Below are positions 3,237-38,542 of a stretch of 64,000 bases of DNA, piece by piece. The translations under genes were made by a program, and so were the position numbers. The notes beneath the pieces are model-generated. The model did not search any database, was not told where the DNA came from, and saw only the letters and a program-made list of their open reading frames with translations. The DNA lies in contig OX597834.1 of the NCBI GenBank assembly GCA_951406725.2, positions 11,904,001-11,968,000 of the forward strand, written 5' to 3'. The number at the start of each line of letters is the position of its first letter. Position 1 is the first letter of the stretch. Origin of the DNA: Octopus vulgaris (lineage: Eukaryota).

Positions 3237-4392
3237 AGTCAGAATTTCGGAAAAAAATCTTTCTATTTCTTTATTATAACGCTTTCGTTCCTTTCTCGAA
3301 CTTGTCAAATTAAATGTTGCGAATGTACAAACAGCTTGTTTATTTATATAGAACAGATGTCTTTTTGTTTTCTTGTGTTTTTTTTAGATGAGAACATTGT
3401 TTTTTTCTTTGTTTTTTCTTTTTGGTGGGGGCCCATGACAAGGGGGCTGGATAGAAATATAGGCTGGTAGATAGATAAATAGATAGACGAATAGAAATAG
3501 ATAGATAGTCAGACAGATAGAGAGAGAGAATGGGTGTCCCCCTTCCTATTCACCATTTATTTATTTAATCCTTAACCATTGTATTGGAATGGGTTTAGGG
3601 TTGTGACCTCTTAAGGTGCGGTTTGATCGTAACTGAAATTCAGTTTGCTTTCTTTCTCTCTTCCCCTTTTCCTTCTTTTTTCCCCCCTTTCTTTTTCTCC
3701 TGTTTGAGTTATAGTTTTTTGGGTGAGGTTCTATGACAATTGAAATGGGTTAGGGTTAGATTGGAAGGATTAGGGTTAGACAGTACATTTTATATTCTAA
3801 ATATAACTGAAAGAGGAGGAAACGAAAGAACGAAGGAATAAAGAAGGAAAAAGGGAAGAGAGAAAGAAAGCAAGTTGACTTTCTGTGATGACCAACCTCT
3901 ATCTGTTTTTTGTTTTGTTTTTGAACAGGTCACCATCCTTAAACCCATTCCAACACAATGGTAAATGACTACAAAAACATGATAAATGAATGGTGAATAA
4001 CAAGAGGGATGCCGCTTATCTATCTATCCTTTTTTTCCCTTTTACGATCACTTTTGATCGAAAACCTACGCCACTTTTTTTTTTCATCCCCCAAAAGAAA
4101 AGCTCTACCTTGTAATTTGTCCCATCTGTGTGCAGCCCTGTGTGGCTAATAAAGAAACTTATCTATCTATTTATCTATCAACCTACCTGTATTTCTATCT
4201 ATCCATCTCCAATGTCATAGAAACTCACCCCATAAAAAACAAAGTGTTCTCTTCTAAAAGAAAAAAAAGATCCAGAATGAACAAGCTGTTTGTATATTCA
4301 AAAATTTTCTTTGACAAGTTCGAGAAAGAAACGAAAGCGCTAATAATAGTGAAGAAATAAAGAGATTTTTTTTTTCCAAAATTTTGACGACT
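3237..4392. mobile_element. Foldback / long-TIR non-autonomous DNA element
   Basis: About 3237-3700 is an imperfect reverse complement of about 3820-4392, e.g. gctttcgttcctttctcgaacttgtcaaa vs tttgacaagttcgagaaagaaacgaaagc and ttggaatgggtttagg vs cttaaacccattccaa; TTAGGG-like centre; right arm interrupted at about 4030-4158. Confidence 0.8.
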
Positions 4393-36345: not shown

Positions 36346-37209
36346 TCTTTTTTAAAGGATGAAAGGCAAAGTCGAAATATATATATATATATATACATAC
36401 GAAGTCTATTATTCTTTTGTAACTAGTATCCCCTCCATTAGCTTTTCCTAGAACCAAGCCAGCCAATGCTTAGTTTTATTTACGTTTCTCTTTTATTTCT
36501 AATACACGATCATTAAAGCAGCTATAGACAACACTACTCGACTCTGTAAAATACCAATTGTTCTGTTGAGATGTTGCAAAACACACACACACACACACAC
36601 AATGAAAATTTGCAGGGAGGAATGATGGTAATTCCAAAATTCTAAATGTGGGAAAAGCTGTGAAGCAGGATGCAGAACCAATATTGAACAAACTGACTTC
36701 AATTGTTTCCTTACAATTCACTTCACTGACAAATCATTCCAATATGGATTGATGTAAAAAGTCTTACACCCACACACGGCTTTCCTTTTCAATCAAACAT
36801 CTTAATAGATTTAAGTAGTATGACCTTGTCTTAAGCACGAGTCTTAACTCCTGTGATTTCTATAACAGCAGTGATTTACCCTCACCTATCTAAATTGAAA
36901 CGGTTGAGAATATAGTTATGTATTTTTATATTTGTTTTCTTGAAGCGTAGCTCTTATTTGTGCGTGCATCTCATCCTGCTGTCAGTTATATGTTTAATGA
37001 TATCTTTCTTCTTATTATTATTTGTTTACATTTGGCAGTAGATCTCTTAGAGTTTATTGCCTGTTTCTTTTATATGCCTTATTTTGTATAATGCATTTCG
37101 AGTAAGACGGAGTACCACAGCCAGTTATAGCATCACAGTCATACATATACACAGTCACACATACAACACATACATATGTGTGTGAGTGTTTATACATGCA
37201 CATATATAG

Positions 37210-37290
37210 ACATGCATGCATACATACTCATTGACACACACATAGGTATGCACAAATGTATCTACATGCATATATGTTGGAGTGGATATA

Positions 37291-37332
<42 letters not shown>

Positions 37333-37400
37333 TGCATAGTCACTGACACACACACATATATGTGCACAAATCTATCTCCATACATATATGTTGGAGTGGG

Positions 37401-37405
<5 letters not shown>
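37210..37405. repeat. ~115-bp tandem duplication around a (TA)n tract
   Basis: tgcacaaatgtatctacatgcatatatgttggagtgg vs tgcacaaatctatctccatacatatatgttggagtgg. Confidence 0.8.
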
Positions 37406-37434
<29 letters not shown>

Positions 37435-37439
37435 TATCA

Positions 37440-38002
37440 ACAATTGAGGGTAAAATTAATTAGTTATTAATCAATTTCACCAAGTATTCAGTATGTAAAG
37501 GGACCATTTAAGGCGAATTCAAAATATTACATTATATAATTAAGGGCTTAGTAAAATAAATTACTTTGCCACATACTGAACTTGCTAGAAATAGCAGCCA
37601 AAAAAAAAAGATTTTTTTGCCATTTCCACTACTTAAAGAAAATTTCTCTCAGATAATGTTTACTCAAAATAACTCACGAAGGTATGGAGGTAAAAACAGA
37701 AAAATATCACAAGTACAAAGATTATTTGAGAACGTTAACGTTTCTAGATTAGCCAAATAAACTCAGCATTTCTTTCGTCAGCTCAACATTTCTTATTTTG
37801 GATTTGGAAGCACTAAAAAGAAAGAACATACCCTTTGGCGACTTATCACCTCAGATGACCCGTTCAGACTGCCAGTACCAACAAATTCAAGATGTGCAAG
37901 CGAAGATTCACTGCTCTCCCCCTTTTTTTTGGGGCTGCTATTTCTAGCAAGTTCAGTATGTGGCAAAGTAATTTATTTTACTAAGCCCTTAATTATATAA
38001 TG

Positions 38003-38008
<6 letters not shown>
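37440..38008 (-). mobile_element. (TA)n-embedded element with perfect 76-bp inverted repeat and internal hammerhead
   Basis: 37524-37599 is the exact reverse complement of 37933-38008; microsatellite tracts flank both ends. Confidence 0.85.
37726..37786 (-). ncRNA. Type I hammerhead ribozyme motif (GUU triplet)
   Basis: ttgag|CTGACGA|aaga...tcta|GAAA|cgttaacg|TT|ctcaa: intact core, 5-bp helix I, palindromic helix III; the helix II closing pair is an A.A mismatch. Confidence 0.72.
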
Positions 38009-38048
<40 letters not shown>

Positions 38049-38144: not shown

Positions 38145-38542
38145 TCCTTTTCTACTCTTGGCACAAGGCCCAAAATTGTTGGAGAGGGGGGCCAGTCGAT
38201 TAGATCGACCCCAGTACGCCTCTGGTACTTAGTTTATCGATCCCGAAAGGATGAAAGGCAAAGTAGACCTTGGTGGAATTTGAACGCAGAACGTAAAGAC
38301 AGACGAAATACCTATTTCTTTACTACCCACAAGGGGCTAAACAGAGAGGACAAACAAGGACAGACAAAGGGGTAAGTCGATTACATCGACCCCGGTGCGT
38401 AACTGGTACTTATTTAATCGACCCCGAAAGGATAAAAGGCAAAGTCGACCTCGGCGAAATTTCAACTCAGAACGTAGCGGCAGACGAATTACTGCTAAGC
38501 ATTTCGCCCGGCGTGCTAACGTTTCTGCCAGCTCGCCGCCTT
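38145..38542 (-). mobile_element. SINE family B tandem dimer (full unit 38312-38542 plus headless unit 38145-38311)
   Basis: Two consecutive central domains; junction gacgaaatac|ctatttctttactacc. Confidence 0.9.

Follow-up and report, generated by a model that had tools for sequence, protein, structure and literature searches.

A perfect 76-bp inverted repeat in the genome of Octopus vulgaris encloses a hammerhead ribozyme motif, which raises the question of what kind of element the locus represents and how it was inserted. The locus lies in a stretch of 64,000 nucleotides (assembly GCA_951406725.2, contig OX597834.1, positions 11,904,001 to 11,968,000), referred to here as the window. Judged from its sequence and that of its relatives, it is probably a young insertion into (AT)n, with two arms and a truncated 5' end, of a 564-nt hammerhead repeat that has no coding capacity. 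The repeat is likely a non-LTR retrozyme that relies on the RT-endonuclease of a Penelope-like element (PLE) to be copied in trans.

Structure of the locus

Comparison of the two arms confirmed the mismatch-free repeat described in the sequence-only reading, with all 76 positions of 37524-37599 matching the reverse complement of 37933-38008, and the inverted repeat widens to 87 nt at 98% identity across a homopolymer. The approximately 80 bp that had been noted outside the repeat at the left end were also found, measuring 84-90 nt and reaching 37434-37438, and the whole element spans 37434-37438 to 38008 (Table 1). The tail contains a conserved hairpin at ~37445-37481. The element is bordered on both sides by (AT)n, positions 37434-37437 being common to the long arm and the AT repeat, and the TSD is unreadable because both element ends merge into the microsatellite. 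No RT/GIY-YIG ORF was found in the flanks of the locus.

Table 1. Coordinates of the insertion and of its hammerhead motif in the window
Feature	Window position	Strand	Remarks
(TA)n target microsatellite, left flank	37401..37426	.	
Long arm	37434..37921	minus	unit positions ~90 to ~571 of the 564-nt unit; 5'-truncated; ends at S2
Tail between end sites S1 and S2	37434..37523	minus	84-90 nt
End site S2	37434-37438		unit ~570
End site S1	37524/38008		unit ~475-481
Left arm of the perfect 76-nt repeat	37524..37599	.	internal part of the long arm, up to S1
Type I hammerhead motif with distal helix I extension	37718..37794	minus	
Helix I, 5' strand	37786-37782	minus	
Catalytic core C3-A9	37775..37781	minus	
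Helix II	37745..37774	minus	A.A at 10.1/11.1, 3-bp stem, 3x3 internal loop, 5-bp stem
GAAA	37744-37741	minus	
Perfect 12-nt palindrome (helix III, intra- or intermolecular)	37731..37742	.	
N17 = U	37731	minus	predicted cleavage between 37731 and 37730
Helix I, 3' strand	37730-37726	minus	
Short inverted arm	37922..38008	plus	unit ~400-481; ends at S1; holds the 76-nt right arm 37933-38008
(TA)n target microsatellite, right flank	38009..38046	.	

The perfect arms had been taken as a sign of recent formation or conversion. The opposite arms of a single locus in the family to which the window copy belongs (family A) differ at 93 of 6,622 sites (1.4%), and given this arm divergence of a young family, the probability of 76/76 identity is ~0.34. 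The perfect repeat is therefore poor evidence of youth, and conversion, which arm identity alone does not support, was dropped as a conclusion from it. Recent origin itself was upheld by a different comparison: the window copy is 1.0% from the family majority, and the median of the best family A matches is 0.98% from the column majority.

The surroundings of the insertion are rich in other repeats. A microsatellite-rich tandem of two 114-nt copies (37202-37426) lies directly to the left, and two 124-nt repeats that are 82% identical (38188-38311 and 38369-38492), possibly copies of an octopus SINE, which they resemble, lie just to the right. An old, decayed two-armed copy of the same clan of repeats is present ~6 kb left of the window start (L152:4039-4341).

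The 564-nt unit and its families

The genome (2.8 Gb, 227 contigs) was searched at the DNA level, and close copies were detected on many contigs, the best 40 of 2,409 candidates being scored; the sequence-only reading had proposed such a search. Thirty family A loci were retrieved, 28 of them distinct. Past the left end of the window copy, its relatives run 88 more bases back into a closed unit of 564 nt, with the same unit junction at independent loci and a 564-nt period, and the window copy lacks the first ~89 nt of this unit. Stop-free frames of the unit reach no more than 66 aa in family A and 83 aa in a sister family, family B, and an RT plus GIY-YIG ORF between pLTRs was not encountered. 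The unit is non-coding, and the window locus and its relatives are not the end of an ORF-bearing element. Of the Penelope-type inverted pLTR structure that had been proposed, the inverted arms and the asymmetric tail stand, while the assignment to the end of an ORF-bearing element does not.

Family A belongs to a larger clan whose subfamilies are 67-92% identical to it and whose units measure 558-582 nt. The 61-nt hammerhead has 69 exact copies in the genome, and two looser clan patterns gave 510 and 1,730 genome matches, with no matches for the reversed-pattern controls. Family B was found nested in L018 (L018:1030-1485; also in L032-L055) and has a 582-nt unit that is 67% identical to that of family A; it is older, its helix II is 21 nt longer, and its 1-nt loop III is unable to fold as a monomer hairpin. 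A PLE ORF that adjoins a family B copy in L032 was considered as part of the same element and rejected, as it belongs to a different element struck by the insertion.

Clan units form head-to-tail arrays of 3-6 units with one hammerhead per unit, and the window locus holds a single one. Units of one array differ by 0-4 substitutions (four of the five units in L143 are identical) and the opposite arms of L150 by 7, while the nearest other sampled locus, where it was a different locus, differs by 13-31 substitutions in a small comparison set. This homogeneity fits repeated passes round a circle, and local duplication or conversion could give it too. Two pairs of near-identical insertions with near-identical flanks, L016/L020 and L146/L147, represent duplicated assembly segments or segmental duplications.

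The hammerhead motif

The core elements of a type I hammerhead (C3-A9, G12-A14, A15.1-U16.1 and H17) are present on the minus strand, and the intact core, the palindrome and the U at 37731 were found as the sequence-only reading had described them. A type I descriptor matched once in the real window and not at all in 150 Markov resamples. A search of Rfam with 37600-37940 up to E 10 returned 3 matches, all to unrelated families, and left the hammerhead unrecognised; over the window, the hammerhead family was not among the 150 of 309 matches listed, nearly all of which were microsatellite matches to miRNA models. A U at N17 cleaves more slowly than C or A. The base of helix II has an unpaired base on both sides rather than a single extra base between A9 and 10.1.

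Fold predictions indicated that in a 98-nt RNA the cleavage strand is base-paired to the core and helix III has a probability of 0.07, which rises to 0.3-0.4 in the context of the long arm. It is possible on these models that the monomer is locked off, in a predicted 'off' fold that depends on context. Two copies were predicted to co-fold into a double hammerhead, which supports the suggestion that the palindrome could permit dimeric cleavage.

In order to examine whether the helices are maintained, 27 hammerheads spanning the subfamilies, themselves selected on the core, were compared, as had been proposed. In this core-selected set, C3-A9 is invariant except at position 7. Helices I and II showed two-sided change at 8 of 22 pairs (38 cells), the covariation score was reached by none of 500 shuffles, and slid structures gave 0-1 two-sided pairs; the counts take in related sequences and are inflated, so that they do not amount to a probability. 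The hammerhead is real and conserved as an RNA structure across the aligned relatives, and its catalysis is predicted.

The same alignment bears on the A.A closing pair, for which the sequence-only reading had envisaged a repair. Position 10.1/11.1 is A.A in 16 of the 27 relatives, C.A in 4, U.U in 4, A-U in 2 and U-A in 1, which makes it non-Watson-Crick in 24. Since 16 of 27 carry A.A, this pair is the subfamily norm and no lesion. A G10.1-C11.1 closing pair is present neither at the window hammerhead nor among the pairs of the 27 relatives. Among the relatives loop III measures 1-4 nt, and several of them have imperfect palindromes; the 12-nt palindrome is indeed perfect at the window copy, the perfect form being limited to its subfamily.

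The whole unit folds beyond shuffled sequences, with z = -5.8 on the hammerhead strand versus -2.3 on the opposite strand, and its consensus structure showed two-sided change at 19 of 107 pairs among 18 units, a count from the same alignment from which the structure was derived. RNA-level selection on hammerhead and unit is likely, judged by these comparisons, and was counted for the retrozyme reading. Variation within family A was not used in this way: the hammerhead interior had 14 variant calls in 2,805 versus 263 in 21,760 outside it, and this difference was set aside because subfamily variants inflate the outside rate.

Pattern of insertion ends and arms

The outer ends of clan insertions lie at two fixed sites ~90 nt apart, S1 and S2, which are both AT-rich and both enter (AT)n. 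Two back-to-back arms were found at 21 of the 28 family A loci, the other 7 having no inverted arm, and one S1 end was combined with one S2 end in 20 of these 21, a proportion to be read with the fact that selecting these loci by match length makes an S2 end on one arm more likely. In the set picked by hammerhead pattern alone, 20 of 25 two-armed loci with both ends visible were S1+S2, 2 were S2+S2 and 3 had one end near unit 450; this tally was made by eye, omits single-armed loci, loci leaving the retrieved stretch and overlapping duplicates, and scores L111 as S2 across a later insertion. When both sets are pooled, 40 of 46 two-armed loci are S1+S2 and six break the rule (two S2+S2, four with an internal end). 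If the two sites were used independently and equally, the 20 mixed loci among the 22 pattern-picked ones with both ends at S1 or S2 would have a binomial P of ~6e-5, as calculated by hand. The Penelope-type inverted structure with its asymmetric tail, first seen in the single window copy, is thus borne out across the clan. The clan loci also show the (TA)n target preference of Hydra, Naiad and Neptune. L110, L121 and L138 share a minor third end site near unit 450, which is another short AT-rich stretch.

Arm lengths vary between loci from 0 to thousands of nt, and the longer arm can be either one. Inner junctions occur at many different points of the unit and show overlaps of 0-10 nt or short fillers, and those of the family A loci do not pile up at the hammerhead cleavage site. 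These observations bear on the possibility that the locus is a MITE or another DNA transposon whose TIRs enclose a chance hammerhead-like motif, in keeping with its small size, its lack of coding sequence, its TA-repeat flanks and a long inverted repeat close to either end. On the left, however, the repeat lies inside the element, 7 of 28 family A loci have no inverted arm at all, and the variable arm length and the inner junction that is different each time refute this explanation, to which we attach hardly any probability; the earlier remark that the asymmetry is unlike that of MITE TIRs was correct.

The relation between the two arms allows another explanation to be weighed, namely that the inverted arm arose by fold-back or a template jump onto the new DNA (self-priming), as has been proposed for Penelope inverted structures (PMC3846280), or by later cruciform conversion. 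A one-base insertion occurs only twice in the whole 2.8 Gb genome, once in each arm of the window locus, and the arms therefore had a common template or were copied from each other; similarly, non-majority bases are common to opposite arms ~5 times more often than to different loci (0.0032 vs 0.0006 per site). A variant template RNA explains an arm-shared variant equally well, however, and the geometry of the arms speaks against copying of one from the other. L115 has one arm from unit 204-472 and another from ~499-570, with no overlap between them, and L123 and L130, like the Hydra-like PLE loci L059, L064 and L080, have arms of which neither contains the other; fold-back copying cannot produce the arms of L115, L123 and L130. 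At the window locus, 310 nt of the unit separate the starts of the two arms, which do not begin at a hairpin point. An origin by self-priming or conversion is improbable in our judgement.

Penelope-like elements of the genome as candidate drivers

Two young autonomous PLE lineages with intact ORFs were examined in the same genome, one Hydra-like (by motif) and one Neptune-like. Each has (AT)n as its target and two sites for its insertion ends; Hydra-like family C has a 151-nt tail and mixed ends in 13 of 14 two-armed loci, and the Neptune-like tail is ~37 nt. This shared two-site, one-tail, (AT)n design supports the PLE-driven reading. We infer from the insertion signature that the driver is a PLE, the two lineages compared being candidates; other PLE lineages were also seen in the genome. 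The Hydra-like family had been considered as the driver from its end design, and this was dropped, as the Neptune-like family has its own second end.

Several closer links between the clan and PLEs were also rejected. In L090 and L103 a clan array and a Hydra-like element might have been inserted together as a chimera, but (AT)n between the two points to nested insertions. Clan and PLE ends resemble each other in short AT-rich motifs, which on inspection by eye were put down to chance.

The clan profile was compared with 104 PLE-related loci (443 kb, including the two autonomous lineages), in which only nested clan copies matched it and no non-nested match was found below E 0.2. This result concerns the possibility that the window locus is the truncated terminal repeat of an autonomous PLE whose ORF-bearing copy escaped detection. 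Published insertions of this type usually have such an origin (PMC8557442, PMC4209133), and genome searches in which the best 40-150 candidates were scored could overlook a rare full-length parent. Apart from the missing homology in the PLE-related loci, however, the examined loci re-enter the unit or stop in (AT)n or an inversion past S2 or upstream of unit position 1, and fixed-period arrays reach 6 units, all of which makes an autonomous parent very unlikely.

The Hydra-like PLEs are abundant and young (L057-L089, for example L088:4179-6503 on the plus strand, and L090-L109), with ORFs of 775-930 aa that contain RW, DKT, CxxC and CxH motifs and no CCHH; a CxCx5C linker was not evident. Their proteins were not annotated by Pfam and PDB searches, and the Atlas ties one of them to HTH_animal/GIY-YIG clusters, with family shares of 25-99%. 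One Hydra-like family has a hammerhead core with C replacing U4. An element named Hydra-1_Obim is listed in the supplement of PMC8557442. The Neptune-like PLE (L199-L202, for example L201:1842-4184 on the plus strand) has a 781-aa RT-EN frame after an overlapping second ORF upstream, and its 3' end carries a hammerhead-like motif with a U3-A8 core swap and few flanking pairs.

Comparison with known retrozymes and Penelope-like elements

Like the metazoan non-LTR retrozymes described in PMC7229834 and bioRxiv 10.64898/2026.07.22.740005, the clan consists of non-coding tandem units with one type I hammerhead each, and shares with them a GC content below 50% (33.7% in the clan unit), strong self-pairing, a short palindromic helix III and heterogeneous subfamilies. 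Its units of 558-582 nt are above the 170-400 nt of the circles in PMC7229834 and within the 51-972 bp given in bioRxiv 10.64898/2026.07.22.740005. The open 10.1/11.1 position has a precedent in an axolotl retrozyme hammerhead with U.U at the base of helix II, which is reported to cleave weakly alone and well as a dimer (PMC7229834). By these features of sequence the clan fits a non-LTR retrozyme, with a putative RNA circle. Whereas 24 of 57 Xenopus retrozyme families match Repbase elements (bioRxiv 10.64898/2026.07.22.740005), the clan has no autonomous homologue in the two lineages compared.

The clan insertions also resemble those of EN+ PLEs (PMC3846280, PMC8557442, PMC11167929) in their partial tandems, adjacent inverted truncated copy, one-end tail, (TA)n preference and hammerhead in the repeat, and differ from them in having no ORF and a tail of ~90 nt instead of 30-40. 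The clan hammerhead lies ~200 nt upstream of S1, compared with roughly 55-75 nt in the two autonomous PLE families of this genome. It is similar to PLE minimal hammerheads (PMC4209133) in being type I, with a 5-bp proximal helix I, a long helix II and a palindromic helix III suited to dimers; it differs from them in a symmetric N.N mismatch, where they have a single extra base after A9, and in a covarying distal helix I, and the G10.1-C11.1 pair that it lacks is called highly conserved in that source. Non-autonomous Chlamys such as MRC1 are likewise PLE derivatives with pLTRs and multicopy head-to-tail insertions, but unlike the clan they generally resemble an autonomous family at the 3' end, and most of them are described as having no canonical hammerheads (PMC8557442).

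PLEs have been termed a 'strong candidate' for the movers of animal retrozymes in a source that states the question as open (PMC7229834), and a PLE origin of animal retrozymes has been argued from co-occurrence and pLTR homology (bioRxiv 10.64898/2026.07.22.740005). The clan adds evidence at the level of the insertion, as a protein-free ribozyme repeat whose two-site, one-tail signature and target are also those of intact PLEs in this genome. The full PLE signature of inverted arm, one-sided tail and (AT)n was not found described for retrozymes in the accessible text of the cited sources, nor was an account of this octopus clan or of its insertion signature in retrozymes found in the published literature as judged from listings, although preprint supplements, Repbase or Dfam may hold one. 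The terms 'ribozyme' and 'retrozyme' are absent from the main text of a 2026 octopus repeat annotation (PMC13282606).

Proposed mechanism of insertion

According to the favoured reading, arrays of two or more units would be transcribed, and paired hammerheads would cut the RNA between units, as predicted best as a dimer via the palindromic helix III. The unit-length RNA would then be ligated to a circle. Once a PLE protein had nicked an (AT)n tract on both strands, each of the resulting DNA ends would act as a primer of its own, at the AT-rich RNA sites S1 and S2, 90 nt apart, and would give a cDNA of variable length, at times after several rounds of the circle, before the two cDNAs were joined back to back. 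At the window locus the S2 arm would have run 481 nt and the S1 arm ~85 nt, leaving an inverted repeat with a tail on one side. Loci with non-overlapping arms bear on the origin of PLE inverted repeats in general, by separate priming versus self-priming; twin priming is a model for L1. In vitro, the tail corresponds to the distance between two RT start sites (PMC11167929).

The long arm of the window copy crosses the predicted cleavage site, and its template was therefore uncut or religated RNA, not a cut linear unit. Uncut RNA is the basis of a further alternative, in which a non-autonomous element is mobilised by Penelope from an uncut linear array transcript, with a weak or idle hammerhead and no circle. 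Results from the one reconstituted PLE system agree with it and count against the favoured reading, in that hammerhead mutants left insertion by an Anolis PLE protein unaffected in vitro, the hammerhead being dispensable and uncut RNA the main template (PMC11167929). The scattered inner junctions, without a pile-up at the cleavage site, and the non-canonical 10.1/11.1 pair point in the same direction. Core and helices are nevertheless kept by compensatory change across subfamilies that are only 67-90% identical, and the near-identical units of long arrays (four of five in L143) are expected from repeated passes over one RNA; an uncut linear template throughout is on balance unlikely, though it is the most serious of the alternatives considered here. 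Also counting against copying of a retrozyme by a PLE are the missing G10.1-C11.1 pair, the U at N17, the absence of PLE terminal homology in the 104 loci compared, the six of 46 loci that are off-rule, and the report that 8 of 9 Xenopus retrozyme dimers showed no cleavage in vitro (bioRxiv 10.64898/2026.07.22.740005).

A more far-reaching interpretation is offered tentatively. The clan, with more than 2,000 copies, may record the missing step of the retrozyme cycle, in which a circular RNA would be read by a PLE RT dimer that starts once per nicked (AT)n strand at two structured sites 90 nt apart. The driver would be unrelated in sequence, so that the shape of the RNA would be recognised, and the hammerhead would work with an unpaired 10.1/11.1 and be inactive as a monomer. 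With intact candidate enzymes in the same genome as dozens of natural RNA variants, such a system could be reconstituted directly, and the range of 10.1/11.1 pairs and helix III loops that occurs in nature forms a test set for hammerhead catalysis.

The window copy had been rated the best candidate for an active ribozyme in the window; as it is truncated and has a single hammerhead, it cannot release a unit-length RNA, and it is likely a dead end as a transposon. It is an ordinary member of its family, and the family as a whole is of more value than this one truncated copy.

Other hammerhead-bearing insertions

Two other kinds of hammerhead-bearing insertion were observed. One family in (AT)n consists of short, nearly palindromic two-armed insertions with a one-sided tail (L008:1190-1480, L044, L030 and L174-L198) and gave 3,535 candidates at first look; no ORF was traced in it. 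The other is a palindromic family (L024:~2000-2400 and L143:~3950-4350) whose centres are of the hairpin type, in contrast to the offset junctions that characterise the clan described here.
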